Origin: Mesotaenium endlicherianum
Taxonomy: Eukaryota
NCBI GenBank assembly: GCA_009602735.1
Contig: WELA01002099.1
Span: 152,535-216,534 of the forward strand
Direction of reading: 5' to 3'
Length of the DNA stretch: 64,000 nt
Positions 18,365-51,430 of this stretch are shown one piece after another. The stretch's first letter is position 1. Each line of letters begins with the position of its first letter. Below the pieces are notes generated by a model, which did no database searches, was not told the origin of the DNA, and saw only the letters and a list, made by a program, of their open reading frames with translations. The position numbers and the translations under genes are program-made.

Positions 18365-18398
18365 ACAAAGAAGACTGTGATAACTGCTCCGATACCAC

Positions 18399-19118: not shown

Positions 19119-22100
19119 ACTAACTAGACTAGACTCCCTCTACTTCTTTGTGCTTCCCATTTATGCTTTAACTCTAAGTGTCCTCTTTAGCAAAGTACCT
19201 CCAGAACCTTCTACTATGGCTCCTTCCAATGTAGGTGACCTTGCCTAGTTGGACAAGCTAGCACACTCACACGCACGCTATCACACACTAGAATATTCCA
19301 CTACACAATCCACTAACTCTTCACGAACTTTCTAGAAATTCCACGATCACTTTGGCACTCTACGTAGTTTTTGGAACCCTCGTGTTTCAATGTCCTACTT
19401 TGTGGACTCCAACCGAAATTTCCGTCACTGAACCTGTCCTTGTCACTAATTTGAATCTGTGACACTAAAAACTCACTAAAAATTCTCAAAATTCATAACT
19501 TTCTCAATACTTGTCCAAATGACTTGAAATGAAGGCCAAAGTTCTTCTAAAATCACACTCTATGCATTTAAAATATTAGAAAGATACAAACTACAATTCA
19601 ATAACCTTACATCATCCCCCTCCTCAAGATGCGACGTCCTCGGCGCATACTAAGCATAAGTGACGTCATATGAGGAATCGAGCTCACATATACGCTACAT
19701 AACACACATACACATTTATTATACAAGTTGCAGGTCTTGAACAGGCTCCAGGATGATACTCATTACTCCAAACTTGCTCCACTTAGTGAAAGCTCTATCG
19801 CATACATTGGCTCCACACATGGCGTCTCCTTACACAAGTGCATTTTCTCTTCAACTCCTTCGTCTTGGAATAGGCCAATATCTTCATAAGGGCTGTAACA
19901 TACTCCCTCCATCATCTCCACATACTCCAAAGCTGGATCCAAGGCATAATAGTCCGCCAAATCGCCAAAATACTCATTCTTCGCCCTCTTGGACAAGTGG
20001 CAACTCCTCGTCGCGCCATGTGGCTTACTCGTGGTGCTCTTATAATAGACTACATCATGAACCTAAGTCCACTATGTTCCTGAACCTTCTAGTACCCTTA
20101 GCTACCTCTAGCTCTAAGCCATACTCCTTGTAGAGGTATTGCACTCTCTCAGTCGTGTGCGTGACTCGTGGTGACCTCTCAAGACGCCAAGTGGCACCCC
20201 CCTGACTTTTTCTGACATTTTTAGCCTCAAAGTTGTGCAATCTACATAGTATCACCCCTCTGAACTCACTGGTATGCTCGGTTTCCCCTGATTTTAAGTC
20301 TAAGACCATAAAACCAGATTACGCCTTGCCTCACACATGTGGCTCCCACGGCAGTCCAGCAGACCGCCATGTGGCACTGTCAGAACTTAATTTAAATATT
20401 TTCATAAAATAAATTTATTTTTCTAAATCTGAACCCATAGGACTACCTCTCCACAAAATTTCAGAATCTGAATCAAAGTCTAACACTCAAACGAGATCGT
20501 CACTTTGTGCCTCACGCTCGTAGGACGTACACGCGCGCAACACGTATCAAGCTCCCGCGCCTACAAATGGCACATGCTTAAACCCCTAACTTTGAAACTT
20601 GACTCTGACTCAGGGCAGGCCTCATACTAGGCCTCTCACATCATGTAGGACTTCTAGTGAAGATATTATCCACTCATTTCTAAGTAGGCAAAAAGTAGCC
20701 AAAAGCTGCCAACTTTAATCCTCGCGCTCGCCTACCCATAAAACCCTCAAACATGGACAGATTTGAGTATCCACTATAAACAACTATAACACTCTCCCCC
20801 CTCATCATGAAGGTAAGGCGCTTACCACTCGAGTGTCCAAGTGCATATTTTACGCCTCTCTCGTGCTTGCTTGTATAGGCGCTGATTCTCCTAGCTTCAT
20901 GCACTGGTCTTTGTCATGTATCTCCATCTTAGGCAGGACATATCAGCCCCATAACACTTGGTCTCCTCCTCATAGGTCCATATCCATAAAGTCGTAGTCT
21001 CCATCAAGCGACGATAGTAACCTTCACAAGGCATGAGCGCGTAGTCTCGCTCGTGGTGCACCAAACTCCATCATAGTCTTCTTCTTGGCTAGATGCTCAC
21101 TCCCACATACTTCTGGCTCTTCTTGAAGGTCAACCTTTACACAAGGCTCCAAGAAACACATCTGGAACGCCTCCAAGAGCTCCATAACTTGGGCATACGC
21201 ACATACTCTTAGTGCTTGCACCTCATCTTGTGCACGCACACACGTCGTCTTGCAAGCGGGCTTCTCTTGAGCTCACTTTCTAGGAGCTCCTCCACTTGAG
21301 CAGTTGGGGTCTGCTCTATATATGAGCAAGGGGATCATACACCTCTACTTGCTCCACCGGCGATGCGCGCTCGCCAAGGTTGTTAGGAGGCACGCTTGCT
21401 CCATGCGATTTCCGGGCCAAGGTCACCAAAACAAGTGCTTCTCCTTCACCTTCACCTTCCCGCGTCGCTTCTTTGCTAGCGGGCTGAAGATAGCTACTTG
21501 TGGTCTTATCTATCTCCACCTATTTCACTATCTTCACTTGACCATACTCCTCCTTGGTCTTCACTTGACCCGTGCACTAAAGCACTAGAGGATAGGCTAC
21601 TCTCTTTGTGCAACTCCTTCCACATGCTTAGCTTCTTGAGTGCACTCTAGCCTTGGTCACCCCAATGACACTTCTTACTACTAAACCCAGCTTGCCTTGG
21701 TGCTCTACTTTCACATGAAGAGCTTCCATAGATGCACCAAAATTTGCCCCTTAACTATGCCAACACACAACTATTGGCACACGCACTTCAAGTGGGAGAC
21801 ATCTCTTGCACTAGCCCTCTTGCACCACCTTCATACCTTGCTTCTTCTTCCACACCATAGGCTTGTCTTCATCATAGTTCTCAACTTCATATACTCTGTA
21901 GTACTCTCCTCCATAGAAAAGAGAAATCTGAACTTGAAAGGCTCCATCTCCATCTCTACTCTTTGAAGAAAACATCTGCGTCACTTCTTCTTGCTCCAAG
22001 CCTCCCCCACGGCGCTTTTCTTCACTTGAGGCTTCATCAATCTCCATAAGAATGACCAAGCTCCATCATGGCTGGCCAACAATACCCAGTGGCTATGTAG

Positions 22101-23823: not shown

Positions 23824-26800
23824 ATGGCCGATCCTCAAGACCAACAGCAAGCTTTCGAAGGAAGCCCTTCCTCTCCAAGACACCCTCCTCCAGCGCCGAT
23901 GGGAGAGCCCACTCAAGAAAATCTGCAACTACTAGAAAGCACTACAAGGAGGAGTACACCTTCCTCTGGCGCCAATGGGAGAGCCTACTCAAGGAAATCT
24001 GCAACAACAAGAAGCACCACAAGAAGGAGCACCGTCAAATCCCGTGGCAGCCGCTATAGCAAAGTTGACCCCACCACAAGGAGTTCCCGCAAATGAGTGG
24101 GCAGCCTTCCTAATGACCGTCCACAACCAAGTGGGCTTGGCCACCTATGAAGCAACCGTGCAAGCGTCAAGAGAAGCTATGGCTGCCATGGTTGCCCCTA
24201 TTGCGAGCAATGCTCAAAATCCAGCCCCGGCTCAAGCGCCTCCACAAGAGCCAACGAGAGCAAGGAAACTCATCAAGCCCGGCAAACCCGACACTTTCAA
24301 CCCCGGGAAAGGTGCCAACCTGAATTTATGGCTCTACCAAGTGGAGACGTACCTCGCATTCCTTGAAGTACTCGAGGAGGACTACGTTCCCTTTGCTGTT
24401 CCCTTACTTAGAGGAGCAGCAACATCATGGTGGCGTAACTATCAAGCAGCTATATATCAAGCTATGGCGCACCCCATGCTCGGCCAAGAGCCCCCACCAT
24501 CATATGCAAGATGGGCAGATTTTNNNNNNNNNNNNNNNNNNNNNNNNNNNNNNNNNNNNNNNNNNNNNNNNNNNNNNNNNNNNNNNNNNNNNNNNNNNNN
24601 NNNNNNNNNNNNNNNNNNNNNNNNNNNNNNNNNNNNNNNNNNNNNNNNNNNNNNNNNNNNNNNNNNNNNNNNNNNNNNNNNNNNNNNNNNNNNNNNNNNN
24701 NNNNNNNNNNNNNNNNNNNNNNNNNNNNNNNNNNNNNNNNNNNNNNNNNNNNNNNNNNNNNNNNNNNNNNNNNNNNNNNNNNNNNNNNNNNNNNNNNNNN
24801 NNNNNNNNNNNNNNNNNNNNNNNNNNNNNNNNNNNNNNNNNNNNNNNNNNNNNNNNNNNNNNNNNNNNNNNNNNNNNNNNNNNNNNNNNNNNNNNNNNNN
24901 NNNNNNNNNNNNNNNNNNNNNNNNNNNNNNNNNNNNNNNNNNNNNNNNNNNNNNNNNNNNNNNNNNNNNNNNNNNNNNNNNNNNNNNNNNNNNNNNNNNN
25001 NNNNNNNNNNNNNNNNNNNNNNNNNNNNNNNNNNNNNNNNNNNNNNNNNNNNNNNNNNNNNNNNNNNNNNNNNNNNNNNNNNNNNNNNNNNNNNNNNNNN
25101 NNNNNNNNNNNNNNNNNNNNNNNNNNNNNNNNNNNNNNNNNNNNNNNNNNNNNNNNNNNNNNNNNNNNNNNNNNNNNNNNNNNNNNNNNNNNNNNNNNNN
25201 NNNNNNNNNNNNNNNNNNNNNNNNNNNNNNNNNNNNNNNNNNNNNNNNNNNNNNNNNNNNNNNNNNNNNNNNNNNNNNNNNNNNNNNNNNNNNNNNNNNN
25301 NNNNNNNNNNNNNNNNNNNNNNNNNNNNNNNNNNNNNNNNNNNNNNNNNNNNNNNNNNNNNNNNNNNNNNNNNNNNNNNNNNNNNNNNNNNNNNNNNNNN
25401 NNNNNNNGAGGACTACAAAGAAGTGTTCTCCCCAAAATTGCCCAAGGGCCTACCCCCCAAAAAGATTTGTAGACCACAAGATAGAGTTGGAGCTCGGAAG
25501 CAAGCCCATCTCTCGGCCTAGGTTCAAAATGTCATACACGGAGCTAAACGAAGTCAAGAAGCAAATCAAGGAGCTACTGGAGCATGGCTTCATTCGACCT
25601 AGCAAGTCGCCATTTGGAGCCCCGGTGCTATTTGTCAAGAAGAAAGATGGTACCTTGAGGATGTGTGTGGACTATCGCGCCCTCAACAAGATCACCATCA
25701 AGAATCGATACCCGCTGCCGCGCATGGATGAGCTCATGGACCGGCTGGTTGGAGCCAAGTACTTCACGAAGATTGACTTACGGAGCGGCTACCACCAGAT
25801 TCGCATCGCAGAACCGGACATAGAGAAGACGGCATTCAGGACAAGATATGGACATTTTGAGTTCATGGTCCTGCCATTTGGACTCACCAACGCGCCAGCA
25901 ACTTTCATGACTATGATGAACACCATATTTCAGCCCATGTTGGACAGATTTGTGGTGGTATTCATCGATGACATCCTTATCTACAGCAAGACCCTTGAAG
26001 AGCATGCGAGACACTTGAAAGAAGTCCTTGAAGTATTGAAGCAAAACAAGCTGTTTGCGAAGGAGTCAAAATGCGAGTTTGCCAAACAAGAAGTGGAGTT
26101 CCTAGGTCTCCACGTGACTGCTGATGGCATCAAGATGGACCCCAAGACTACGGTGGTGGAGGAATGGCCAACCCCCACAACCAAGAAAGAACTCCAATCA
26201 TTCTTGGGATTTGCCAATTGGTACAGAAAATTCATCCAAGGCTTCTCGCACATAGCAGCCCCCCTGACAGATCTACTCAAGAAGGACAGGCTATATACAT
26301 GGAGCGAGAAAGAGGAAGAGGCATTTCAAGAGTCAAAGCAAAGATTGACCACATCCCCGGTGCTCACACTCCCAAGTCCAAACCCAGATTGGCCCTTCCA
26401 CGTCATCACCGATGCATCTTCCTATGCAATAGGAGCAATCCTGCTTCAAGACCAAGGCAAGGGACTGCAGCCCATCGCCTACGAGTCAAGGAAGCTAAAT
26501 CTACCCGAGCAAACTTATACAACCACGGAGCGAGAGGCATTGGCGATTGTACATGCCTTAAGGTTTGGCGCTGCTACGTTGAAGGACGCAAGGTACTGGT
26601 CACCACGGACCACGAGGCGTTAAAGCACCTCCAGACGCAGCCGTATCTCTCAAGGAGACAAGCAAGATGGAGCGGATACTTGCAACAATACAACATCACG
26701 ATTCAGTACCAGCCCGGCAAGACAAACCCGGCTGACCCCCTCTCAAGACTGCAATTAAATGCAGTGATGACATCCCTGAAGACAGATCTGGAAGCTCGAT

Positions 26801-28341
26801 TTTCAGCCGCCTATAAAAGAGATCCTTACTACAAGAACTGAGAAGCAGCCTTGGACCCATACAAGAAGCAAGAAGGCAATTATTGGGTGAGGCAAGATAC
26901 GGGCCAGAGATGTGTTCCTAATGACATAGACCTCCGGCTCTTGCTTCTAAGATAAGCACACGACAACCCACTTGGATGACACTTTGGAATCCTAAGGACC
27001 ACGGGCGTTCTAGCCAGGACTTATTGTTGGCCAGGCATGTCTAAGCAAGTCAAGGAGTACTGCAGGAGCTGTGACACATGCCAAAGAATCAAGCCATCAT
27101 CGCAAAAGGCGGGAAGACTCCTCCAACCACTACCAATTCCCGAAAGACAATGGACGGACATCTCAATGGACCTTATCGTGGACCTGCCCGTGACACCTCG
27201 AGGCCATAGTGCAATACTCACGGTGGTGGACAGACTTACTAAGATGGCTCATTTTATTCCCACAACGACTAAGGCTACAGCACCACAACTTGCAAGACTC
27301 ATCTTTGACAACATCTTTGGACTCCATGGACTACCATCAAGAATTGTGTCAGATAGAGATCCAAGATTCACAAGCCATTTCTGCGAAAATCTCTTCAAGA
27401 ACTTGGGTACATCGTTGGATATGTCTACTGCCTACCACCCACAATCAGATGGGCAAACCGAGCGTATGAATCGTACCCTAAAGACCTCTCTAAAGGCCTA
27501 CGTGTCTACCCTGAAGCAAGACTGGGACATGTACTTGACCCCTCTCGAGTTTGCCTACAACAACACGACGCAGGCCTCTACCCAAGAGTCCCCATTCTTC
27601 CTCAACTATGGCTTCCACCCAACCACGCTGCTGAGATTCACGGCTTGTCATGATGAAGTACCTGCAGCAACAGATTTTATGGAGACATTAGAAACGGCCC
27701 TTACAGCAGCGAAGAAAGCTCTGCAACAGGCGCAAGATGCTCAAGCAAGAGTGGCAAACAGGTCCAGAAGAGAACTTACGTACAGAGTGGGTGACAACGT
27801 GTTACTATCATCCAAGAATATTTCCTTGAACAACAAGCCTGCCGGCAGCAAGTTCTCTCCCAAGTATTTGGGACCCTTCAAGATTATCCAGCAAGTCAAC
27901 CCCGTTGCTTTCAAGCTAGAACTTCCCCAGACTATGCACATTGACCCCGTATTCCACGCTTCCCTCTTCAAGCCGTATGTGCAACCCGACAACAAGTTCC
28001 CAGGACGTGTGACAACCCCACCAGCCCCAACAATAGTGGATGATCATTTGGAGTACGAAGTGGAAGACATAGTGGCTATGAGAAATTTCAGGAGACAGCA
28101 TCAATACTTGATCAAGTGGAAAGGATATTCAGATTCGGATAATAGTTGGGTGGCGGCGCACTACCTTGACAAAGTTCAGAGAAAGTTGAAGCGCTTCCAT
28201 GCCGCCAACCCCCATCTTGGACCAACCCCAAAACTCTCTACTAGAAGCCCCAAGACTTCAGGGAGGCAGCCTGCCACCATCAAGAAGCAGCAGAAGACCC
28301 CTTGGAGGCAGCCTGCAAGAACAAGAAAGAGGAAAAATTGA
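23824..28341 (+). pseudogene. C1 gag-pol with frameshifts and stops, spanning an assembly gap
   Basis: gag [40 protein letters not shown]. RNaseH TDAS. IN SMD..SDRD..QTER. Chromodomain YEVEDIV..YLIKWKGY. Confidence 0.92.
24524..25407. other. Assembly gap (884 N)
   Basis: Run of N. Confidence 1.
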
Positions 28342-31300
28342 CATTAGACACTCTTCTCTTCTNCATTAGACACTTTTCTCTTCTCACAGTTTCTAGATAG
28401 AAAACTAGAACTGCTACTGGTGATAGGTCTCTGCATAATAAATTCTGAAAATTTATCTGGCTGTAGTCCATAAGTAGCCGGTCATTTAGAGTCCAAGTTT
28501 GCTCAATTTGGAGCATTGATAAGAGAGATATAATGCTCTAAGTAGAAGGGGGTCAAGCTGCTGGCATTGTTAGGGCAGAATATGCCTTCTGACATTGTGC
28601 CCTCCCCTGAACTTGGAATGCTCTGAAACTCAAGACTCTGGTAGAGCATGTGACAGCGCCTAGTTTGAGACTTAGTTTGCAGAATTTGGAGAAGTATAGA
28701 AGGACTTATGATTCTCAGAAGTTTCTGCACAGATTTGGAGGAGTGCCTACTCTCTCAGCTCTCAACGACACTCCAGAAATGAGAATGCTCTCAAATTTGG
28801 TGACCCGGTAGAGTTCTCCGACGCGGTCCGTCTGGCACTCGAATTTTCAGATTTGGAGCAGTTCTGTGGCCGCTATGAATTTTTGAGTTCGTGGCAGATT
28901 CTGGGCCAACTTGTACAATTTTCTTTATCATTAAGGAGTAGGCTAGCCAATAAGGTCACACCACCCACGACCTTGCCTAGTCTACCTTACATGTGTAGCA
29001 CCTGACTTGGCGCCTTGGACTAATCCTCTTCACATGTGCGGCATCTGACTTGAAGCTGTAGACTAGTCTGCTCCACATGTGTAAGACCTGACTTGACGCG
29101 CCGAGACGTCGCTTTTTTCGGCGGGGGGGTGATGTAGTGATTGGAGTTATTATATATTAGTTTGCATATATTTTAATGTTTTCAAATATATTTGGAGTAG
29201 TATTGTTTGGATTCAAGTGTGAATAGATACTCTAGTGACTTGGTTCATGTCCTTTGAACCTTCTAAGGCATTTTCAAAGTTAGAGGAAAGACCTAGAAGA
29301 ACTCCACGTGGCAAAAGTCAAATGTGCCATTTTTCGGTCAAAAGGACATGTGTACATTATTCTAGAAAGAGGTGGCAAGTTTTGGGATGTGTTGGGTGCC
29401 AACACATCAACATACACCTTCCTAGAAATTACTTATGTAGCAAGTATATAAACAAGAGCTAGAACATAGAAAGACATTCAAGAATCACTCTTGTACTTGC
29501 CAAAATCCAGAAATATATTAACTTTCAAGAAGCCATCTCTCTTTCAAGAAGCTACCACTTGTGTTCAAAGATCCTTGTCTTGAATAGATAAAGTATTATA
29601 TTTCACTAAGTACTTCATCTATCTTTTTCACTACACTCTACTTCTTTGTGCTTCCCATTTATGATTTAACTCTAAGTGTCCTCTCTAGCAAAGTACCTCC
29701 AGAATCTTCTACTATGGCTCCTTCCATGTAGTTGACCTTGCCTAGTTGGACAAGCTAGCACACTCACACGCACGCAATCACACTCTAGAATATTCTACTA
29801 CACAATCCACTAACTCCGCACGAACTTTCTAGAAATTCCACGATCAGTTTGGCACTCTACGTAGTTATTGGAACCCTCATGTTTCAATGTCCTACTTTCT
29901 GGACTCCAACCGAAATTTCCGTCACTGAACCTGTCCTTGTCACTACTTTGAATCTGTGACACTAATAATTCACTAAAAACTCCCAAAATTCATAACTTTC
30001 TCAATACTTGTCCAAATGACTTGAACCGAAGGCCAAATTTTTTCTAAAATCACACTTTATGCATATAAAATACTAGAAAGATACAAACTACACTTTCATA
30101 ATCTTACAGTGTAGGTCTAGACATATTTTTTTGACACCGATCACATAGCTTAACATAAATCAAGACCTCTCGAGGCAACCCTTCCCAATAATGATGCGCT
30201 GCTAATTTGCCAACAATTTTGGCCTGCAAATGTCCTCCCAGAAAACTGTCTTGTACTTGACTCAGTAAAAGTGACCTTATTTCCAACTTATTAGGAATGA
30301 CCAATTTCAACTTGACTGAAGTGGTTTCTATTACCTAGACCCCTCCTTTCAACTTATACCCGAGTGCAATTGCAGGACACACACCATCAGTGGGGCTGGG
30401 CTCAAATGTTGGGTTAGAAAGGTATGCTTTTCTAATTTGTTCAAGGAAGGACTTTTTGACTTTCAATGAAGTGAGTGCACAAAGAACTTTACTTACAGCA
30501 TGCTGGTTAAAGTTCCTTTCTTGCAAGTCAAGTCTTCTAGATAGTGCATCAGCAGGATTCAACTTCCCTGGTTTGTAGTCAATCTGGACTTGAGACTGCT
30601 CCAACATCTGGCTCCAACGATTCTCCCTCCTCGACAGCTTGGACTTTTTCCAAAAGTGAGTCAAAGCTAGATGATATGTAATCACCTTAAAAGCTTTGCC
30701 ATGTAAGTAAGCTCTCCACTGTTTAAGCAAATGAATGATAGTCAGCAGCTCTTTATCATGCACAGAACAATTGATCTTAGCTAGATTGAATTTCATACAC
30801 TCGTATAGCACAGGTGCCACTCCTGCTTCACCTTACCATCCTTTGTGGTTTCATCAGCAGGCTGCAACAAAATAGCACCTATGGCAAAGTCAGAAGCACC
30901 AGTAACCACCTACACAGCTTTGTTGAGGTCATACATAGCTAAGATTGGGGCAGAACAGAGAGCATTTTTAAGGGTCTGGAAGGCAGCTTGCTGCTCTTCA
31001 CCCCCCACATACTCTATATCCTTCTTAGTAAAGTCAGACACCTTACTAGCCTTTGTAGAAATATTTTCAAAAAAAATCTCCTATAATAGTTAGCCCATCC
31101 GAGGAAGGATTCAACTTCCGAGACTGACTGTGGTATTGGCCAGTCCCCCATGGTCTACACTTTCGTAGAATCACATTGATGCCTTCCTTATTGACAACGT
31201 GCCCTTTGAATCAATGCTCTCCTCAAACAATTCACACTTGCTCATTTTTACATATGAATGATTCTCTCTTAAAGTGTCCATTAACCACTTTTAAGATCTA

Positions 31301-37482: not shown

Positions 37483-39839
37483 CCTTACTTTCGCATTGTT
37501 CTCCTGACTTAGCAAAGAAATGTTGGACATCAGGTGGAACAAGACCATCTAAAGTGTGCATTCTCTGGAGATCTATATTGCTGATGGTCTCCTTTTCTTG
37601 TTTGTCAGGCATGCATAGTGAATGCAGCTCAACAAGACCCATAATACCAGCTACAAGGGCAACTAGCGACGACTCATTATCTCTAGCATCCTCACTGTCA
37701 GTAGACTGGATTTTTGACTGATGCTGTCTTTTATAGGCTGATCCTTTCTCTCAACCTTTTGAAGGTGCTTTCTAGGACACTGCTCTCTGTAGTGGCCCAA
37801 GTCCTAGCAATGGTAGCAAATAAATTATGCTGAGGCTGGTCTCGGCTTAGTCCTACCACCACCTCTTCCATAGCCACCTTGAGAGTATCCACTTTTCCCC
37901 GTAGACTGCATAGCATTATACACATACTCCTACTCATCACTTTGATCGTCCCTAGCCTGGTCTCCTTCAATTGCATTGTAGGAACCATGTGGCTTATTGA
38001 CAATCTTAGACACCAAAGCATTACTTTGGCGATTGTGATTGAACTCCTACTGATCCCAGGCATCAGCATTTTGGATCAAGTCATCCAATTTCTCATACTT
38101 CTTTTTAGCAAAATGACCTGAGACCTCGCGCTTCAAGCCATACTTGAAGCATGCTAACTTATAATAACGCTTCGGCAGTTCCGGCTGCTTCATCATGTTC
38201 TCGTGGAACTTCTGAGCAAATTCAGCAACTGAAGTGGTCTGCTTCAGTGTCAAGGAGATCATTGCATAGATAACTTTCTCCTGTTGATTGACAACATCAA
38301 ACTTATCCTGCAGTTTCTCGACAAATTCTACCCAAGTAGGGTCACCGAGTTGTTGAGCCTTACGCTCTCCTTCCCAATATACCCACAAGTCTGCTGCGCT
38401 GTCTTTCACTAGAGCACCGGTGTGCCTGACTTTCTTGTAGTCTTGCAGTTTTGGGTAATTCTCCAGCCACTGCTCAACATCAGCGAGAAACTTGATCAGG
38501 TAGTACTCTTTGTTTCCTTCAGGGTCATAGTTTTGAGGAGGTTTTGACTTAGGCTTACTCGGCCCTCTGTCACCACCATGGCAAGCCCAAACCTGTCGTC
38601 TTAGTTTCTAGTCGTACCCTGTTGTGGCACTCTGTTGATGCTAAGGGTGGGAATGGGTGGGATGGTAGGTGAGGGTCAGACTGTTAGGTGCTGCGGGAAG
38701 TGAGTTAGCTGGATCTCTTCTTCCGATCATGAGGTCGCTTTTGAGCTGCCATGGGACGCTCTCGAACTAACACGTGCCCAACGACCATTCCCATGTGCGC
38801 CTCGCCACCGCCGGTCGTGGGACACGTGCAGACCAGTTGACTTACCATAGCAACTACCGACCAGTACCGACCGCTAGTTAGGGGAGGGGGTGAGATGATA
38901 AGGCCGCATCACTACGGGCCAGCCCATATGTTAGGAAGTGTAGGTGAGTGCTATCCACACACTAGTATCATCTACTGCTCAATTCCTGTACTCTGATATC
39001 TAGAAAAGACGCGTTAATTCTCACGCGTCTTTTACGCTGTGCATGTTAGATTTGGCTCAAGCTAGGGCAAGATAGAGAGCAAGTTAGGTAGGAATCTGGT
39101 CATTTTTTGTCAAATTAACCCTGTTGTTAAGAGCCAAGCGGACGGTGACCGACACCTAGACGCTGATTCAAACGCAGATAAGGGTCTATTAGAAGTTGAA
39201 CCCCGCAATACCCAGCGGTTAGAAGAGGTGAGGACTTGGCTGGTAATAGACGAGATGACGTCAGAGATAGGAGGGGGTACACACCAGCTAATTTTTGGAA
39301 AACCAACAGGGATGACCTTGCATACCTTAAGATCACGACTGATGCTTCTTTTGCGGTGCTGCGTGCTCGCAGCAATCGGGTAACTCGAGACGATTTCTTC
39401 CTCATGTTGCCAAACTACCTCAGCGATGACGCTTTGACTCTCTGTGAGGACAACAAACCATTTTTATCCCAGTATCCCACCTGTTGGAGGTATCCCAATT
39501 CCCTCGGCAGTGCCAGCGGCAGGAGCAGTAGCTGCTGAGGGACAAGAGGAAGCCTTAGAAGGGGACGACAACAATGTAGCGGGAGGAGGTGGATTTTTTG
39601 TTACAGGAATTGGGGGAATAGGTGCTTTGGGCCCAGGAGCAGGTCATGGAGGAGATGATGCCAATGTAGGACCTGGTCCAGAGGAGCGCAGTCTACCGGC
39701 TTACGCTACGCCCGTCCAGATTGCCGCCGCTTGCGCCCTGGACATTCAGCAGCTGGATGCTCAACGCTGTCAGCGTCAAGCACTCATTGGAGTTCACGTT
39801 CCTCCATACCCACTCATGCCTGATGTTCCAGTTGATTGA

Positions 39840-42800
39840 TGAAATAAATCGACTTACCAAATAGGCGATTAACAATTAATAAAGATCTTTATATCAGCAA
39901 TTAATCTTTATGGATTTTCCGTTAATTGATTAAACGGCAAGAGGACAACACACTAGCAGTGAACAACAATTGTAAATCAAATGCAAGTAAACTAGCATCA
40001 ACAATGCAATCAGTAAACTCATGCATAAGCAAGGTTAGAAGACAGTGCGTATCAATGGCTTCTCGCCTTGGATTCAGATCTCTCTCAGTAAGCTGTACAA
40101 GAGAGTTGGCGTCGTTTCCGAATGCCGAACTCGAGAGCAATCCTTAGCATATGTACATGGAATGAGTTTACTGTTCAACGGTCAGTGCGATGGCACCGCC
40201 TACCCGGGAGTTAACCACATTGGTAGGACCTCGGTTAACCAAATCCACCGCCATCTCCCATCATCCCGAATCGCCATCCATCATAGGGATGTCATCTGGC
40301 CATTCATCTAGCATACCACACTTAGATGCATATCGAGGCAGTTCGCTGCTACCGAGTACGGAAGTCAGCTGGCTCTCAAAGAATGTGTCAGCAAGCTGAC
40401 TTAAGTTGACTTCAGCCTGCTACTTCCGGCCGAGTCATTAAACTGATATTAAATATGAAGTCCAGCAGACTGATTATTAACTAGAGTTCAGCAGGCTGAA
40501 CTTAATTAACTATTATATTTAAATGAATATTATATCAACTAATATACTGATTCATTACAATCCCTCCAACTTATCATGTTGTCGCCTCGACAACACTATC
40601 ACTAATAACAGCGTGCTGTCCCTTTTGTCCCCATCCTACTGCCATTAGGAGGGAGATGTCCCTGAGGCTCTATACTCAGGGGAGCCAAATCTCCTCCTGT
40701 CTTGGGGTCTTCTGAAGCCTGTCAGCGAGGGAGGTTCCGTGTAAGGACCCGGCGGAGAACGCAGTAACTGGGCTGTTTCCTCCTGCACAGTCTGAAACTG
40801 AAGGGAGGCAGCCTCCTCTTGGGCAGCCCTCAAACTGACAGGTACGTAAACCGGCATCCCAGAAGGATGTTGCATGACATGAGCCAAGGGTACATGCCCT
40901 CTCTGCGAGGGAGATGCTGGCAGGCCTCTGGCTATCTCCCGAGCAGCCCTCCTGTCTGCCCTGTCTGACTGGGTCACCTTGCCTGGAGATGGGGTCTGTC
41001 TTCTGGCAGTCCCCAGCCAAGTGATATCCTCCTCTTCAGCGAGCTGCTGCAGGGCCGACTCAGTCTTCTCCCTTACAGGGGATGTGGCAGGCGTCAGGAT
41101 CACGGCGGGGCTAGTGTCCTCCTCCTCGCCTTCCTCCTCGTCTTCCTCTGACTCCTCCTCCTCGCCGTCCCCGGGTTCCTCTGAGACTTCTGGGGTCTCC
41201 TCTGTCAGCTGCTCCAGCTCTTCCCGAAAAAAAGAATATCCTACTGACCTTCCTCTTTTGGGTGCTGGTGGGGGCTGCTGAGTCCGGACCGCATAGAGGT
41301 CCTTTTCCCCCTGCTTACTTGCCCATTTGGCATAAGTGTGCTTCCCTTTGGAGAACGAGTCTCGGGCCTTGCTCCTGTCCCCCTGCATTTCTTGGCTCAT
41401 GCAGTCTCTGACTCCATCCAATCTTGGGTCCCAAGCCGCAATGTGAGGGGGCAATACTATGTTCCCCTTTAGGTCTGTCAGGAAATCCTCATCCGTCGCC
41501 TTGTCATTCTGCTGGTCCCTCATGTTGATGGTCATCCACCGCCAATCAGTGGGCTTTTGGAAGAAGGCAGGGTCTGTCCTTTTAAGAGTACAAGGGTACC
41601 AGTGCCCTGCAAAGTCCAGCTGACTGGTTTCCCTGGCCAAGAATTCCCAGCTCCTTCTCTCCACCTCATTATACAGGGCCTTGAACCTGTTATGGGGTGT
41701 TGAGTCCTTGAAGCTGTCCGCGTCCATGGGGATCATCCTGATGACCCTATCTTCCCCCAAGATACCAGGAATCGAGACAGCCCCTGCTTCGTTCACCTGA
41801 GCCATTGCCTTGGCCTCTCTGACCGTATATCCTACCATCCTGGCGCAATCGTGGTAGAGGAGGAGCCCCGTGCTGACCTCTATATACTTGTCCTCAGCCT
41901 GGTCTCCTTTAATTGCATTGTAGGAACCGTGGGGCTTTTTGACAATCTTAGACACCAAAGCATTACGCTGGCGCTTGTGATTGAACTGCTGCTGATCCCA
42001 GGCATAAGGATCCTGGATCAAGTCAGCCAATTTCTCGTACTTCTTCTCAGCGAAATGACTAGAGACTTCGGATTTCAAGCCATACCTGAAGTATGCTATC
42101 CTATACCGTTCTGGCAAGTCTTGCTGCTTCATCATGTTCTCCTGGAACTTTTGAGCAAACTCAGCAACTGAAGTCGTCTGCTTCAGTGTCAGGGAGATCA
42201 TCGCGTAGATAGCTTTCTCCTGCTAGTTGATGACATCAAATTTCTCATGCAACTTATCGACAAACTCTGCCCACGTAGGGTCACCGAGTTGCCGAGCCTT
42301 ACGCGCTCCTTTCCAGTGAAGCCACCAGTCTGCGGCACTGCCTTTCAATAGCGCACCGGTGTGCCTGACCTTCTCGTAATCTTGCAGTTCTGGGTAGTTC
42401 TCCAGCCACTGCTCAACATCCGCGAGAAACTTGATCAGGTAATATTTTCTGTTTCCCTCAGGATCATATTCCTGGGGAGGTTTCGGCTTGGGCTTACTAG
42501 GCCCTCGGCCACCACCACCAGTGGTGTGAGACCCCAGTTGGTCTCTGTCCCGCAGTAGGGACATTATGATTCTTTTGTCCTCCTGCTGGGACTGATACAT
42601 GGTCGCCATTTGCGACTGCATCTGAACAAACAATGCTCCCAAGTCTACACTCTTGGGTGGTAGTCTAGCAAATGCAGCAGTAGCATTGGCATCTACTCGC
42701 TGAGTAGTGTCCTCAACTGTCCCTCTCGCTCCTGCAGCAGCAATTCCTGCCGCATTCAGCCGGTCACGTATTTGACCTAGGGGTACATTGAGTTGTACAG

Positions 42801-43885
42801 CAGGAGGTGGGTTCAGAACATTGGCCCTTGGTGCCATGAGTTCTTCATCAACGCGCTCGTCAGCTGGCTGTCTTTCCCTCCTTTCTGTATCTTCAACGGC
42901 CTTTGCTAATTGTTCAATTTCTAGTCTGGCTCTCTCCTCCTCAGCTTGCTGTGCTGCGACTGCGGCTATAGCAGCTGCCTCATCTGCAGCCTCTCTAGCT
43001 GCAGTATCTGCCACTGCTTCAGAATGGGTACGGGTTCTCGCTACATAACTTTCCGCCTGGTTTTTGACATTCTCGTTATCCTGGTTCTCCATGTCTCGGG
43101 AGTTGCTAGTTTGAGACCTTGTCCTTACCATACGAAGAAGACTGTGATAACTGCTCCGATACGACTGAAATAAATCGACTTACCAAATAGGCGATTAACA
43201 ATTAATAAAGATCTTTATATCAGCAAGTAATCTTTATGGATTTTCCGTTAATTGATTAAACGGCAAGAGGACAACACACTAGCAGTGAACAACAATTGTA
43301 AATCAAATGCAAGTAAACTAGCATCAACAATGCAATCAGTAAACTCATGCATAAGCAAGGCTAGAAGACAGTGCGTATCAATGGCTTCTCGCCTTGGATT
43401 CAGAGTTCTCTCAGTAAGCTGTACAAGAGAGTTGGCGTCGTTTCCGAATGCCGAAATTGAGAGCAATCCTTAGCATATGTACATGGAATGAGTTTACTGT
43501 TCAACGGTCAGTGCGATGGCACCGCCTACCCGGGAGTTAATCACGTTGGTAGGACCTCGGTTAACCAAATCCACCGCCATCTCCCATCATCCCGAATCGC
43601 CATCCATCATAGGGATGTCATCTGGCCATTCATCTAGCATACCACACTTAGATGCATATCGAGGCAGTTCGCTGCTACCGAGTACGGAAGTCAGCTGGCT
43701 GTCAAAGAATGTGTCAACAAGCTGACTTAAGTTGACTTCAGCCTGCTACTTCCGGCCGAGTCATGAAACTGATATTGAATATGAAGTCCAGCAGACTGAT
43801 TACTAACTAGAGTTCAGCAGGCTGAACTTAATTAACTATTATATTTAAATGAATATCATATCAACTAATATACTGATTCATTACA
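39840..43885 (-). mobile_element. Family A deletion derivative A2 (LTR, gag::ORF3, LTR; no pol)
   Basis: 720-bp LTRs at 39840-40559 and 43166-43885. Perfect TSD ATTGA. PBS variant TCGTATCGGAGC. Confidence 0.95.
40645..43131 (-). pseudogene. In-frame Gag::ORF3 fusion (828 codons) with one premature TAG at 42223-42225
   Basis: ORFs 42223-43131 and 40645-42201 share a frame, and the TAG corresponds to a CAG in A1. Junction GDQAED|KYIEVSTG at about 41890. Confidence 0.88.
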
Positions 43886-46521
43886 ATTGAGTGGCTGTTT
43901 TGTTAGAATTGCTTTAGACTGCATACCCATTAGACGTTGTTGCCCGTCAGGATGAAATCCGAGGCCTGGAGCACCAACCTGGAGAAACCCTATGATGCTC
44001 AGACACCGGTTTAGCAAACAAATTCAAAATACAGGTCTATTCTTAGGGGTGAATGATGCTTGCTTCCATTACATGCGAGGTATGCCAATCCTCCAGGATA
44101 AGCTGCAACAGCAATTTGCACTATCCGATCCAACTAAATGCACGTTGGTCCAAATCCGCGCATGGGCGAAACAACTAGAGATGGTGGCAGCAGCGATTGC
44201 CTCATGACGTCATTTCACTAGATCATTATCCTTGTCCGCTCATGTTGTTTTGGTACAGCCTACTCTGACTATCCTGATGGGAGCCGCTCCAGCTTCAGCA
44301 CCTAAGCGAGTTATTTGCGATCACTGCAAGCGACGAGGTCACTCTTTGCCAGACTGGTACCAGTTGTATCCGCACAAAGCCCCTGTCAGATGGGTCTACC
44401 GCGCGCCAAGGACAACTCTTACGTCGAGTGCTCCGGTTGTACCAGCTGCGGTCGCCCAGATGCCACCCCTACTACCACCACTCCAGGTCGGTTCTTCCTA
44501 CTTGGAAGGGGCACAAGGAGCAGGCCAAGCCGTCTAGCCAGCCGCTCCTGGTACAATGCCTGGTCCGGCCCACCCAGCCAACGAGTTCTACGTCCGGCAG
44601 CAGCTTGCAACTCTCGAGGCAAGTCTACAAGACATGCATTGGCGCGTTGGGTCCCAGCCGGATCCAGTCAGCTACGTGGGGCTCCACCCTCAGCCATGGG
44701 CATACCCAGATAGGCCCTTTCCATACCCTCGTCCACCCGACTTTGCATGCTGTGTGTCAGACGAAGTTGGTGCATCTGGTGGGGAGCCAGGGTTGGCTGT
44801 TCAAACTCGGCGAGTGTCTTGTGTAAAAACTAACGCGTCGATTTGGCCTACCCCGCTAGGTCCGGACCACGGACGTCCTCTGGGTAGGCCCACTCAACAG
44901 TTTTCTTGTTCTTTTGAGTATTTCGGTGCCGACATGGATCCGCCTTTGGTTGGTATCAGTGCTACGTCTCTCTCCATGCGCATGGGTGGGGGGAGCGCAG
45001 GTATCCTCCACATTACGCCAGTCAAATTTCCGGCAGCACAAGCCCATGCACATGCGATTTGTGATAGTCTATAAGCAAGTGCGTCGAACAAAAATTGCTC
45101 CTACCACCTTCCTACGCCCAGATGGTAGCAAACCTGTCCAAAGCATTCCTTGCCACAAGCTGCACCGATGTGGCACCTACTATGGCTACCATTTTGGTCC
45201 TCCAAATGGACTCGATTCCAATTTCCCTTTCTGATTACTCTGCTGATTCTTGGACAGCGACTGTTTCGTATGATATGCCCTACATCGTTACGTCTATTTT
45301 AAGGGAAGTGCGCTACGCTGCATTCACCATGGGGCTTCGCTCCGCTTACAATACACTACCTGGTCCTGTCACAAAAAGTACCGTGTCTCTTGCACCTCCA
45401 AAGGTGGTTGATCCACGTGTGCCGCCTGTCGTGCCTGCTAGCGCGTCCAAATCTTGATTCATTCCACCACCTCCAGATCAGCTGGTCACCCTGCTGGCGT
45501 TCCTCACTGCGTTGCCTGTTCTTTCTGTGGCTCAGTTAGTACAGGTGCAAGCCCACATCACTTGTGAGTTCGCCCGGCGCTATTTTGACGAAGCATCGAC
45601 TTCCTCGTCCATGCCTGAGCTCACCCGTACCAACACCGCAACTTTCAGATGGGGGAGGACGTCGACGCACCACGCGAGGAGAATGCTGCCGTCCTATCGT
45701 CGTTCCTGCTCGCTCAAGACATGACCGCCTTGTCAACCTCAATCGTCACCGCTCTCCCGCCTCTAGCTCTTCCTACCCCGGGTAAGCTTTCACTTGCCGC
45801 TCCCGCGTTCATGCCCACTTCTGGTTTGCAGGTTCCTTTCAAGTATGAGCCGACAACTTCTTTCCTCAGTCCAACAGCTCAACAGTCACCATTCCCACAA
45901 AACACCGTGCTAAACAACCGCCATGCGTGCTTTTTGATTGCGGGTCTAGCACCTCAAGTAGTTATCCTGAATATTGGGGCCCAACCGGTTTTGCTTGGGG
46001 CTGTCATGTGCAAGCACCCAGGTCTCTCTCCTGCTGATTTAGAACCTTGTCCAAATCCAGTTTCAACAGCCATGTCAGCTGATAACCATATTGCATTTCA
46101 AACGCGTAGACGCTTACCAATCACCCTTAATTCACACACCTCCGCCGCTGTCACCCTCTACGCCCAGTGTATGGTTACTAAATCTACTTCCTATGACGTC
46201 CTCCTTGGCCAAGAGTTCAACTTCCTCACGGGTCTTACATAGATTCGTGGCACGGATACTCTACATACCGCCTATCAAGCAGCAGAATTACACGTCTGAT
46301 ATCTCCCAATTATCTTCACTCATTCTAACTCTACCGTTCCTATCGCTTATACCGTCCACTCTGAACCTTCGTCAACTGCCACCCAAACCAAGATCAAGTT
46401 AGCTTCAGACCAGCCCATCGCTCCACTTGCTGGTTCCCCACTTCCTCCTCTGCCGCTTCCTCCCTCGTGCGCTCCAGCTCTCCACACCAGCCCTATTAGT
46501 TGGTCTTCCTCTCCCGCCGAT

Positions 46522-47480
46522 TTAGTCGTACTGGATCTCTTCGCAGGTCTGTCTACCGCCGTTGCAGCGTTGCTCCTGCTCCTCAGTGGCCATACCATCG
46601 CTCACTGTTATTATTGCGATAGCGATCCTCAAGCTCGCCTAGGTAGCTCCTTCCACCTCCAACAGCTCTCCCATCACTTCCCAACTTGGTTTCCTCCCTC
46701 CGCCTATACTACCGCTTATCAAGCTCTTCCCCAAGACATCCGTTTTATCCAATCCAACTACATTCTCGCTATAGGACCCGTCGACCTTCTCATTGGTGAT
46801 TGGGAGTGCCAGGGGCACTCACGTGCCGGTAAGGGTCTCGGCCTAGGGGACCCACGCTCCCAGTTATGCTTTGAACTAGTACAAGTCTTACATTGTATTC
46901 AGACCAGTCAGACCGTTCCTGTTGCCTACCTATTTGAGAATGTTTATTCCAAAGACGACCCTCGAGTAGCTGTATGCCACAACTTTCTCACCATTCTCTC
47001 CATTCTTGGGCCTTGTGTCGTGCTCAATGTCGCCGCCGTGGGGTCCTATGCCCATCATTCTTGCGCCTTTTGGCAAAAATTTGTCACTGACGAGATCTTA
47101 CGCGCTCCACTTCATCGTATTCACGCCGCCCCACCCAGTCTCCGCCTCGCAAATATTTTAGCACCTCACCGCTGCCCAACGGAAGTTCAAACAGCCAATC
47201 ACGCTTTGTTTTGTCGGGTTAATCTGCCAGGGTTTTTGCGTGCAGCATTTCCTACCCTAGTCAATCGACCTTCTTTGTATGGCTTTCGCAACTTCGGTCC
47301 CGGCATGTTGTTTGATGCTCTCACCAGCACTCACGTCAAACCCGATGCGTCCGAACGAGAGCGAGCTTTAGGTTTCTTGCCTAATGCCACTGCCTCCCCG
47401 CATCTCATCGACACCCGTTGCTGTTAGCTTCTAGGTCGAGTCATGGATATACACGCTCTTAGTTGGCTTTTCACTATCCT
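46522..47480 (+). pseudogene. C5 DNA cytosine methyltransferase domain embedded in retrotransposon pol
   Basis: Motif I VLDLFAG, III PQDIRFI, IV DLLIGDWECQGHS (Cys 46807-46809), VI YLFENV (ENV 46936-46944), VIII SYAHHSCAFW, IX ERERALGF, X *LLGRVMD, in canonical order. Confidence 0.88.
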
Positions 47481-47952
47481 CCCTGCTCTTAACTCTACCC
47501 AACCCCACTCTTTCCACATTATACATGCCTGTCACGCTAAGGTTTTTACTTGGGGGGGGGGTAGGTTTGTAGCTTCTAATTAGCAACTAGCGATTTCACC
47601 TTCGTCCTCACCCAACCCTGTCGCCCTCGTACCCACGTGGGATCTAGGGTCACAATTGACGAAGGATGAGGCCACCCAATTTCTCACCATGCTCACGCAC
47701 AAGGAGGATTGTTTTGCACGCACCATACTGGAGCTAGGGTTATGTACTATCTCTCAGATGACCATAGAATTCACTGTCATAGAGCCCATCTTTAAGCGCC
47801 CATACCAACACAGTATAGTAGAACGCAATATTATCGAGGCTAAATGCGCAAAATTGCTTCAAGCCGGGCTCATCGAAGAGTCTATGTTCGACTTTGCAGC
47901 CCCTACAGTTATGCCAGCTAAGAAAAATCTGGACGGGAACTATATTGAGAAA

Positions 47953-50900
47953 CTCACGGATCTACTCAAGAAGGACAAGCCATACGTTTGGACCAAGAAA
48001 GAGGAGGAAGCATTCCAACAACTGAAGCAAAGATTGACGACATCCCCGGTGCTTACACTCCCAAGTCCAAACCTTGATTGGCCCTTCCACGTCATCACCG
48101 ATGCATCTGCTTATGCAATAAGAGCAATCTTGCTTCAAGACCAAGGCAAGGGATTGCAGCCCATTGCCTATGAGTTCAGGAAGCTGAATCCAGCCCAGCA
48201 AAATTTTACAACCACGGAGCGAGAGGCATTGGCGATTATACATGCCTTGAAGGTTTGGCGCTGCTACGTTGAAGGACGCAAGGTGCTGGTCACTACGGAC
48301 CACGAGGCGTTGAAGCACCTCCAGACGCAGCCGTATCTCTCAAGAAGACAAGCAAGATGGAGTGGATACTTGCAACAATGCAACATCACAATTCAGTACC
48401 AGTCCGGCAAGACAAACCCGGCTAACCCCCTTCCAAGACTGCAATGAAACGCAGTGATGACATCCCTGAAGACAGATCTGGGAGCTCATTTTTCAACCGC
48501 CTATGAAAAAGACCCTTACTACAAGAACTGAGAAGCAGCCTTGGACTCATACAAGAAGCAAGAAGGCAATTATTAGGTGAGGCAAGACACGGGCCAGAGA
48601 TGTGTTCCTGATGACTTAGACCTCCGGCTCTTGCTCATATGAGAAGCACACGACAACCCTCTTGGAGGACACTTTGGGATACTCAAGACCACACGCGTTG
48701 TAGCCAGGACTTATTGCTGGCCTGGCATGTCTAAGAAAGTCAAGGAGTACTGCAGGAGCTGTGACACATGCCAAAGAGTCATGCCATCATCATAAAAGGC
48801 GGGAGGACTCCTCCAACCACCACCAATTCTAAAAAGGCAATGGACGGACATCTCGATGGACCTTATCGTGGACCTGCCTGTGACACCTCGAGGCCATAAT
48901 GCAATACTAACGGTGGTGGACAGACTCATCAAGATGGCTCATTTCATTCCCACGATGACTAAGGCTACAGCACCACAGCTTGCAAGACTCATCTTTGACA
49001 ACATCTTCCGACTCCATGGACTACCATCAAAAATTGTGTCGGATAGAGATCCAAGATTCACAAGCCATTTCTGGAAAAATCTCTTCAAGAACTTGGGTAC
49101 ATCGCTGGATATGTCTGCTGCCTACCACCCGCAATCAGATGGGCAAACAGAGCGCATGAATCGTACCCTAAGGACCTCTCTAAAGGCGTACGTGTCTACT
49201 CTGGAGCAAGGCTGGGACATGTACTAGACCCCCTTGGAGTTTGCCTACAATAACATGACGCAGGCCTCTATTCAAGAGTCTCCATTCTTCCTCAACTATG
49301 GCTTCCATCCGACCACGCCATTGAGCTTCACGGCTAGCCATGATAATGTACCTGCAGTCACAAATTTTTTGGAGACAGCAAAAGCAGCCCTTGCAACTGC
49401 GAAGAAGACTCTACAACACGCGCAAGATGCTCAAGCAAGAGTCGCAAACAGGTCCAGAAGAGAAATTACGTACAGAGTGGGTGACAACGTGTTACTATCA
49501 TCCAAGAATATTTCCCTGAACAACAAGCCTGCCGGCAGCAAGTTCTCTCCCAAGTATTTGGGACCCTTCAAAATTATCCAGCAAGTCAACCCCGTTGCTT
49601 TCAAGCTAGATTTTCCCCAGACTATGCACATCGACCCCGTATTCTATGCTTCCCTCTTCAAGCCATATGTGCAACCGGGCAACAAGTTCCCAGGACGAGT
49701 GACAACCCCACCAGTCCCAATAATTGTGGATGATCATTTGGAGTACAAAGTGGAAGGTATTTTGGCTGTGAGAAATTTCAGGAGACAGCAGCAATACTTG
49801 ATCAAGTGGAAAGGACATCCAAATTCTGAGAATAGTTGGATGGCGGCGCACTACCTTGACAAAGTTCAGAGAAAGTTGAGACGGTTCCATGTCGTCAACT
49901 CCCATCTTGGGCCAGCCCAAAAGTCTCTCTACTAGAAGCCAGAAGATTTCAGGGAGGCAGCCTACCACCATCAAGAAGCACCAAAAGACCACTTGGAGAC
50001 GGCCTGCAAGAACCAAAACGAGGAAAAATTGATATTAGACATTCTTCTCTTCTCGCAATTTTTGAATAGACAACTAAAACTGCTATTTTCGATAGGTATC
50101 AGATGCTCATTATTTTCTGAAATTTTACCTAGCTAAATTCCATGAGTAGCTGGTCCTTTAGAGCCCAAGTTTGCTCAATTTGGAGCACTGGTGAGAGAGA
50201 TATGATCCTCTGAGTAGAAGGGGGTCAGGCTGCTGGCATTATTAGGGCAGAATATGCCTTCTGACATTGCGCCCTCCCCTGAACTTGGAATGCTCTGAAA
50301 CTCAAGACTATGGAAGAAGACCTTATTGCGCCCATTTAGAGCTAAACTTTGCAAAATTTGGAGAAGTATGATATTCAAAAATTCCTGCACAAATTTGGAG
50401 GAGTACTCACTCTCTTTGCTCTCGACAACACTCCAAAAGTTGGAATGCTCTCAAATTCAGTGACCTGGTAGATTTCTTTGACGCGCTCCATTTGACATTA
50501 GAATTTTTAGGTTTTGGAGCAATTATGTGGACGCTATGAGCTTTTGAATTTATGGCAGATTTTGGGCCAATTTGTACTATTTTCCTTATCGTCAAGGAGT
50601 AGGCTAGCCAATAAGGTCACACCAACCACGACCTTGCCTAGTTTACCTTACATGTGTAGCACCTGGCTTGGTTGTCTTTGAATAATCCTCTGCACATGTG
50701 TGGCACCCAACTTGCAGCTGTTGACTAGTCTGCTCCACATGTGTAAGCCCTGACTTGACGCGTCGAGACGTCGCTTTTTTTGTCGGGGGAGTGATGTAGT
50801 GATTTGAGTTATAATATATTAGTTTGCGTATATTTTAATGCTTTGGAATATATTTGGAGTAGTATTGTGTGAATTCGAGTGTGAATAGATACTCTAATGA

Positions 50901-51430
50901 CTTGATTCATGTTCTTTGAACCTTCTAAGGCATTTTCAAAGAAAGAGGAAGGACCTAGAAAAACTCCATGTGGCAAAAGTCAAATGTGCCATTTTTAGGT
51001 CAAAAGGACATGTGTACATTATTCTAGAAAGAGGTGGCAAGTTTTGGGATGTGTTGGGTGCCGACACATTAACATGCACCTTCGTAGAAATTTCTCATGT
51101 AGCAAGTATATAAACAAGAGCTAGAACATAGAAAGGGCATTCCAAAATCACTCTTGTACTGGCCAAATTCCAGAAATATATTAACTTTCAAGAAGTCACC
51201 TCTCTTCTAAAAAGCTACCACTTGTGTTCAAAGATCCTTGTCTTGAATAGATAAAGTATTGTGTTTTACTGAGGTCCTTATCTATCAGTTTCACTACAGT
51301 GGTAAAGAAGCAAGGCACTTTGGTAGCCCAAGAAGATGGCCGATCCTCAAGACCAACAACAAGCTTTTGAAGGAAGCCCTTCCTCCAAGAGACTCTCCTC
51401 CAGCACCGACCCTCCTCCAGCACAAGCACC
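47953..51430 (+). mobile_element. Family C fragment: RNaseH-IN-chromodomain, LTR (50795-51298), then degenerate PBS and gag start of a tandem C copy
   Basis: Colinear with C1 from about 26262 to 29635. After the LTR come TGGTAAAGAAGC and MADPQDQQQAFEG, as at 23824. Confidence 0.9.

Follow-up and report, generated by a model that had tools for sequence, protein, structure and literature searches.

The window analysed here is a 64-kb stretch (64,000 nucleotides) of contig WELA01002099.1 from Mesotaenium endlicherianum. On its forward strand lies a locus which is almost certainly the decayed relic of a Ty3/Gypsy retrotransposon lineage carrying a DNMT3-like cytosine methyltransferase. An earlier note on this DNA, made from its letters without database searches, had described a retrotransposon with its own methyltransferase between protease (PR) and reverse transcriptase (RT). 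From comparison with related sequences we give a fair preference to a fuller reading: in this lineage the methyltransferase closes the Gag-protease frame, a conserved stop behind it is leaky, and the enzyme would be packaged at a Gag-like level, likely methylating the element's own cDNA. The features of the locus are listed below by window position; related loci are cited by L numbers and related proteins by P numbers. ORF stands for open reading frame, RH for RNase H, IN for integrase and LTR for long terminal repeat.

38579..39839, + strand: uncertain, may be the element's 5' part to the left of the nested insertion; the target-site duplication makes it continuous with 43891
39840..43885, - strand: younger element of chromovirus type, inserted into the Gag region, with LTRs at 39840-40561 and 43166-43885 and a Ty3_capsid match
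43891..44400, + strand: Gag remnant (tblastn); matches in the capsid region are weak, and 44313-44354 holds a decayed zinc knuckle, CDHCKRRGHSLPDW
45952..46299, + strand: aspartic protease remnant, tblastn E 5e-12 to the P0002 protease, with stops at 46240 and 46297
46522..47450, + strand: DNMT3-like C5 cytosine methyltransferase, EC variant of motif IV, decayed; TAG 47425 interrupts it just before motif X
47581..47589, + strand: conserved in-frame stop TAG CAA CTA in CAR-YYA context, where programmed readthrough from ORF1 into ORF2 is predicted
47584..47952, + strand: start of the element's own RT (123 N-terminal codons), 42% identical to ORF2 of L004, on a long branch in the RT tree with stop-bearing relatives
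47953..51298, + strand: 3' half of a high-copy chromovirus unrelated to the DNMT element, with RNase H, integrase, SH3, chromodomain and an LTR at 50794-51298, joined in frame to the relic

Within 45649-47952 the reading frame is interrupted by four stops and no others: TAG 46240, TGA 46297, TAG 47425 and TAG 47581. A read-derived contig is identical to the window over 43858-47982 and extends 28-30 bases into the flanking repeats, which argues against an assembly chimera, with the caveat that this contig may be the source DNA. The protease-like ORF had been placed upstream in the methyltransferase frame, with a disrupted stretch at 46240-46299, and the protease match (E 5e-12) and the two stops agree with this. 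Taken alone, the protease remnant has no Pfam match. Its active-site motif reads NIGAQ against D[ST]GA in relatives, with Asn replacing the catalytic Asp. By eye, the protease end resumes over 46240-46299 in another frame (IDSWHGYSTYR, compared with LDYWGESVCFR of L004), and the two stops therefore likely stem from a local frameshift that was later compensated.

The frame does run on into the RT N-terminus, as had been proposed. This part is 42% identical to the RT of relatives (E 7e-24), against 29-31% over 49 amino acids to the chromoviruses of the window. What had been missed is the end of the element, which breaks off at 47952 with the loss of the RT core and all after it. The downstream part is 87.9% identical over 3380 bp to the window copy at 26264-29635, itself without a methyltransferase; its RNase H and integrase share 82% and 90% identity with that copy, and 36% and 29% with the DNMT family. 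Contig depth, when summed, rises from 75-275 over the DNMT part to 7e4-6e5 further downstream, a contrast of three orders of magnitude, although such depth is no copy number. A single continuous element through 51298 is ruled out by this family switch at 47953. The chromodomain at 49744-49890 belongs to the other family, so the DNMT element does not qualify as a chromovirus.

At the 5' side, 49 Gag queries gave 28 tblastn matches on the Gag remnant, 27 of them on the + strand (best E 1.4e-5), and none in two control stretches. The stretch with the decayed zinc knuckle (44283-44393) matches the Gag of relatives; the capsid-region profile matches are collinear but weak (scores 1.5 and 4.5). The LTR pair of the nested element is 98% identical, and its flanks, read directly, carry a 5-bp target-site duplication, ATTGA, at 39835-39839 and 43886-43890. 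Left of this insertion the same 49 queries gave no tblastn match to a Gag N-terminus and a collinear Gag profile match was non-significant (score -3.8); 38579..39839 has no repeat match elsewhere in the window.

There is no second copy of 43888-47952 in the 64-kb window, and no near-length homologue turned up in a search for such sequences. Read-derived contigs were used in place of a whole-genome search for other copies. In each of two further DNA runs from the same sample, 16 other contigs match the element in short stretches only, including PR, motif IV and RT, so older diverged copies in the same genome are likely.

The methyltransferase domain and its relatives

Motifs I, IV, VI, VIII, IX and X all lie in order in the single + frame in which they were first described: I (DLFAG) at 46534, IV (GDWECQGHS) at 46795 with E at 46804 and C at 46807, VI (FENV) at 46933, VIII (AHHSCAFW) with H at 47056 and C at 47062, IX (ERERALGF) at 47353 and X (LLGRVMD) at 47428. 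The profile check suggested for the domain was run, and PF00145 matches ORF 46300-47424 with E 1.8e-6 and 28.1 bits against a curated cut-off of 22. The domain is 37-38% identical over 97% of its length to intact Gag-PR-DNMT proteins (E 1e-53). In local tblastn of P0002 against the window, the DNMT region was missed under default composition statistics and found with those statistics off.

The resemblance to the DNMT3 type noticed earlier is seen at two levels. A profile of ten family members matches DNMT3A with E 5e-17, compared with 5e-7 for DRM, 7e-7 for HaeIII and 1e-6 for HhaI, the best non-DNMT3 entry standing at E 5e-7; DNMT3A also supplies the closest solved structures by sequence. At the level of fold, the predicted model (pLDDT 91.7) has only DNMT3A/B/C among its listed PDB matches (best E 1.5e-14, TM-score 0.60-0.69), and viral fold matches are weaker. 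The motifs run from I to X, unpermuted unlike those of DRM, and DNMT3 is the nearest type by profile and by fold.

The element has relatives among green algae, mosses and liverworts. The 31 proteins from a profile search carry source names from Marchantia, Calypogeia, Sphagnum and Mesostigma; a cluster search at 50% identity returned 873 matches, and counts over 150 below refer to the best 150 of these 873. Closterium is the source of one of the 10 representatives looked up. Neither the 31 proteins nor these 10 representatives include one named Klebsormidium. The full-length ORF1 proteins P0025, P0058, P0059, P0065 and P0066 are annotated as hypothetical genes in Marchantia, several of them on the V chromosome. 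A pattern scan added 43 loci, 42 from metagenomes and one viral. The viral contigs gave this one match, which is distant and bacterial-type; L038-L041 and L043 hold bacterial or phage-type C5 methyltransferases that have the GWPCQG motif of the family and are far more distant overall.

The intact relatives reveal the plan of the lineage: Gag-PR-DNMT, a stop, then RT-RH-IN-PHD. For example, L002 has an ORF1 of 1369 codons (Gag-PR-DNMT), TAG, and in the same frame an ORF2 of 1047 codons (RT-RH-IN-PHD); the ORF2 of L003 is alike. The Ty3/Gypsy order Gag-PR-RT-RH-IN is complete in these two loci, and the window copy reaches only the start of RT. Gag, protease and DNMT are also joined in two intact proteins of 1330 residues, both of which stop about 100 residues past DNMT. 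The integrase has a C-terminal PHD finger (Pfam E 3e-10; L002:8053-8187, and the same place in ORF2 of L003) in the position of the chromodomain of chromoviruses. Among five loci checked by self-blastn, L026 has split DIRS-like repeats in the order A-internal-B-A-B (1676-2017, 10238-10805); the other four are without one or both ends or collapsed. L002 starts and ends with a similar short GC-rich palindrome.

The DNMT of this plan is under purifying selection, with a nonsynonymous to synonymous ratio (dN/dS) of 0.09-0.12 in all three pairs among L001-L003. RT pairs with L001 were dropped, their ungapped comparison being out of register. By local profiles, the best 150 matches divide into 20 with DNMT before RT (13 PR-DNMT proteins ending after it and seven continuing into RT), 79 with a second layout, RT-RH-DNMT-IN-PHD (P0044, P0072, P0119 and others), and 51 fragments. 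The second layout is mostly EC in motif IV, and its members group as a single branch of the RT tree (support 0.97). Many of its proteins start shortly before RT, which may reflect an upstream stop or frameshift. Both trees put the window copy with the first layout, where its branches are long and local support is weak; the DNMT tree held family members and two bacterial-type outgroups only.

Could the locus be a chance mosaic, formed when a decayed chromovirus received a retrocopy or a fragment of a host DNMT3? The locus truly has a chromovirus 3' half, and neither the window nor the sequencing runs hold a close second copy. However, PR, DNMT, the stop and the RT start stand in the order and spacing of the intact relatives, and the short matches of other contigs at PR, motif IV and RT point to older copies in the same genome. 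The PR-DNMT-RT order recurs in related loci and there is no sign of introns, so the earlier expectation that the domain is no independent insertion was right. We find the mosaic hardly credible and regard it as refuted by the intact Gag-PR-DNMT homologues together with the order, spacing and stop shared with relatives.

The stop between methyltransferase and reverse transcriptase

The earlier note read TAG 47425 and TAG 47581 alike as decay, each one change from CAG. This holds for the first, which has no CAR-YYA context, and fails for the second: of the 43 loci fetched, 26 extend as far as the RT start, and every one of these has an in-frame stop there, which excludes TAG 47581 as a product of decay. 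The two codons after TAG are CAA CTA in the window, CAG TTA in L001 and L002, CAA TCA in L003 and CAA CCA in L004. All five sequences fit stop-CAR-YYA exactly and use all four YY pairs; the second codon varies between Leu, Ser and Pro, and variation is confined to the degenerate places of the six bases. As background, CAR-YYA follows 5 of the 1719 TAG triplets in the window and is absent at the other three stops of the frame. L002 and L003 retain stop and context across a synonymous divergence (dS) of 1.4. CAR-YYA by itself is reported to direct readthrough in tobacco mosaic virus (PMC2194720). From this sequence pattern we consider it very probable that programmed readthrough of the stop yields an RT-RH-IN-PHD fusion. 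Between motif X and the stop there are 51-138 codons and no internal stop in the six sequences scored. L004 has an extra TAG between protease and DNMT (L004:3192-3194) without the CAR-YYA context, which is probably decay of that locus.

The alternative is that ORF2 is made through splicing or from a separate start, with TAG kept as a splice acceptor (YAG) or as the plain end of ORF1. There is precedent in Ogre elements, where an intron is reported to separate GAG-PROT from RT-RH-INT (PMC6317226), and some Marchantia and Sphagnum database gene models join DNMT to RT. Here, however, both flanks lie in one open frame without a stop-rich spacer, and no pyrimidine tract was found near the stop (0.43-0.65 pyrimidine). 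The gene models disagree on the join, with gaps of 20, 38, 79, 85 and 101 residues, as expected of predicted introns dodging a stop. The conservation is located 3' of the stop, in the CAR-YYA pattern. As to a separate start, the large family with CAA CCC after its stop has an ATG two codons downstream, which would suit it, but no start is shared: in eight sequences the first Met after the stop stands at codon 3, 3, 4, 5, 14, 36, 48 and 117. The lack of a conserved Met, of a stop-rich spacer and of a pyrimidine tract disfavours both reinitiation and Ogre-type splicing, and we hold this alternative to be quite unlikely.

Several observations weigh against readthrough and against its reach within the family. 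No consistent RNA structure was found 3' of the stop (z from -3.5 to +0.4). The 26 stop-bearing loci represent only about six independent lineages, because 21 of them are one close family with CAA CCC, one mismatch from CAR-YYA, in which the stop is TAG in 13 and TAA in eight; its in-frame ATG was mentioned above, and its members are partly the same insertions assembled twice. L015 reads TAG TAG CCA. The junction of Tca2 is reported to have driven downstream expression independently of upstream ribosomes as well (PMC2194720), which calls for caution. Finally, seven of the 150 representatives have DNMT and then RT in one open frame, and 79 have DNMT between RNase H and integrase, so the family as a whole does not require the enzyme at Gag-level abundance. 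As these single-frame relatives and the second layout make clear, only one branch has the stop.

The Glu-Cys variant, the substrate and the state of the copy

Motif IV of the window copy is encoded by GAG TGC, giving Glu-Cys (EC) in place of the Pro-Cys (PC) of C5 methyltransferases; the Cys is retained. L014 likewise has EC, and the Mesostigma and Closterium members have WEC. The suggestion that EC could be a family-specific variant has found support, since the best 150 representatives include 81 with EC, 53 with PC and 16 with other states. Decay as the source of EC is ruled out by these 81 distant relatives, whose other catalytic residues are intact.

Do such enzymes work? The EC members keep the Cys, the motif VI Glu (81/81), the motif VIII arginines (79/80 and 80/80) and the Gly of the S-adenosylmethionine (SAM) site (66/66), and retain the catalytic residues other than Pro as fully as PC members do. 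We therefore predict from sequence that EC-type enzymes are probably active. A contrary reading makes the EC form no working DNA methyltransferase, leaving methylation of DNA to PC enzymes and making EC a cytosine binder or trap, an enzyme acting on RNA or RNA-DNA hybrids, or a decoy against host methylation. In its favour, the motif IV Pro before the catalytic Cys is described as invariant and in contact with the cytosine amino group, a Cys without it being predicted inactive (PMC2965745); the Klebsormidium domain is reported without activity in yeast (PMC5890265); and the elements show no extra CpG loss. However, DRM3 and DNMT3L lose residues of the kind that EC members retain, and about 13 interchanges of E and P are counted on the tree, against a shuffled mean of 49, without an accompanying change of layout. 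On balance we think this reading unlikely. The share of EC is itself less secure, as the 81:53 ratio was drawn with an EC query and may be inflated; the nearer relatives are mostly PC (42 of 43 loci, and 26 PC, two EC and three unreadable among the 31 proteins). Intact domains of the EC type include Mv19666 of Mesostigma, CAI7911866.1 of Closterium and P0122, whereas those of Marchantia are of the PC type. The EC state challenges the rule that C5 methyltransferases have an invariant Pro-Cys, and it provides naturally occurring variants to assay.

Since 2018 the question has stood of why transposons carry an enzyme that hosts use against them. The position of the stop predicts abundant enzyme in the particle and points to cDNA as the substrate. 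Translation of ORF1 would yield as much protease and DNMT as Gag, and rare readthrough of TAG CAR-YYA would add the RT-RH-IN-PHD fusion. Protease would release DNMT inside the particle, where abundant enzyme at the site of cDNA synthesis could methylate the cDNA before integration. The cDNA would then enter the genome pre-marked, and the PHD finger of integrase may read the target chromatin.

We lean slightly towards cDNA as the main target of the enzyme. An active enzyme might instead mainly target host chromatin near the insertion site or other genomic DNA. The PHD finger at the end of the integrase in intact relatives and the position of DNMT next to integrase in 79 of the 150 representatives would agree with this; on the other side, DNMT in this layout precedes the stop together with Gag, so that the majority of its molecules would be untied to integrase. 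We rate a host target as improbable. A trace of methylation is not evident in base composition: the observed to expected ratio of CpG is 0.79 in the DNMT segment against 0.43-0.51 in neighbours lacking DNMT, with 0.28-0.78 in relatives, and this speaks against self-methylation.

More tentatively, and below even confidence, the sequences may belong to an old and large Gypsy clade of the green lineage with an active DNMT3-like enzyme, a repeated switch from Pro-Cys to Glu-Cys, two domain positions, and one branch with capsid-level dosing by readthrough of the tobacco mosaic virus type, in which cDNA would be pre-methylated and integration steered by PHD. If this is true, young intact Marchantia copies (for example Mp_4g09160, BBN08134.1) would allow a direct test of self-methylation in a model plant. 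The full-length Marchantia ORF1 proteins provide the genetic model, and the window copy itself is only a data point.

The window copy is dead. It has three stops besides the conserved one, has lost the motif VIII arginines and the protease Asp, has no close second copy and has next to no RNA. Of the 54 columns that at least 80% of relatives conserve, it retains 41, which is among the lowest four of 138 sequences (median 93%). In seven of the 13 columns where it departs, the difference is one C>T or G>A change, compared with a neutral share of 15% (P 0.0014 under a model of equal rates, which takes no account of transitions being generally in excess). The two arginines of motif VIII, which relatives conserve at 98-99%, were lost through single transitions as had been deduced earlier, leaving H-x-C here. 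The frame is broken by TAG 47425 before motif X; relatives keep R-x-R and an unbroken frame. In five RNA runs, of each of which 6-24% was read, no reads fall on 44122-47950 except for a trace of depth 0.13 in one bin, which gives readthrough no support from RNA; three of the five runs cover the flanking repeats. The history of this copy would have been the insertion of the younger element into Gag, erosion of the frames by transitions, and a deletion joining the RT start to the 3' half of the other family.

The surrounding window is a nest of chromovirus-type elements and has no tRNA genes in its 64 kb. A chromovirus at 11157-18412 has long open gag and pol (508 and 1276 codons) with all domains, and LTRs near 10326-11082 and 18399-19119. 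In another copy an 884-base run of N (24524-25407) is the source of false long ORFs. At 49348-49852 and 50006-50139, RNA reads from other chromovirus copies (90-95% alike) skip 503 bases in three of three RNA runs. The skip ends in CT..AC, that is GT..AG on the minus strand, and the reads are mostly of one strand in two stranded-looking runs. A spliced antisense transcript over the 3' region of the chromovirus integrase is likely.

Comparison with known systems

The concept of such an element was already known, as the earlier note stated. KnitGypsy-Dnmt3 of Klebsormidium nitens, published in 2018 (de Mendoza et al., PMC5890265), likewise is a streptophyte Gypsy with an intronless Dnmt3-related domain under purifying selection, and an intronless Dnmt3-like domain inside a Gypsy coding region is what we find here. 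It is reported to have a DIRS-like repeat layout, which is shown on our side by the relative L026 (PMC5890265). The two differ in that its DNMT lies in the Pol ORF with RT and RNase H (PMC5890265), whereas here a conserved stop splits DNMT from RT; a shared ORF with RT and RNase H is not seen in the window copy and is true of 7 + 79 of the 150 other representatives. The KnitGypsy enzyme, the only one from a charophyte to have been assayed, was inactive in yeast, a result which its authors call inconclusive and which counts against an active enzyme here; the same authors proposed methylation of cDNA before integration for DIRS elements (PMC5890265). As far as the accessible parts of that account go, it does not mention readthrough, an EC variant, a PHD finger, land-plant members or a second layout (PMC5890265). 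Later papers, in the parts available, touch on these elements only in passing (PMC12344493; bioRxiv 10.64898/2026.05.21.726589). Among the titles and abstract openings searched, none covers the conserved stop, EC in motif IV, the second layout or land-plant members, most subscription papers lying outside this coverage.

Other retrotransposons with C5 methyltransferases are SymbioDIRS-Dnmt3 and SymbioLINE-Dnmt of Symbiodinium, where two domain orders coexist as well (PMC5890265). The SymbioDIRS Dnmt3 domains are reported to methylate CG de novo in yeast (PMC5890265). However, these elements are of the tyrosine-recombinase and LINE classes and have other hosts (PMC5890265). The EpiLTRs of Cymbomonas and Euglena are, like the present family, LTR elements that combine a cytosine methyltransferase with a chromatin reader (bioRxiv 10.64898/2026.05.21.726589). 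They differ in having a DNMT sister to DNMT4, together with a Dam methylase and a chromodomain, and the paper describing them sets them apart from streptophyte Gypsy-DNMT3 (bioRxiv 10.64898/2026.05.21.726589).

For the stop, the nearest parallels are Tca2, SIRE1, MuLV and Tj1/Tosmo, in which an in-frame stop is reported to lower the downstream product relative to Gag (PMC2194720; bioRxiv 10.1101/2022.12.06.519325), and tobacco mosaic virus, with which the six-base 3' signal CAR-YYA is shared (PMC2194720). In those retroelements the stop separates gag from pol or pol from env (PMC2194720; bioRxiv 10.1101/2022.12.06.519325), whereas in the lineage described here it comes after the protease and the methyltransferase.

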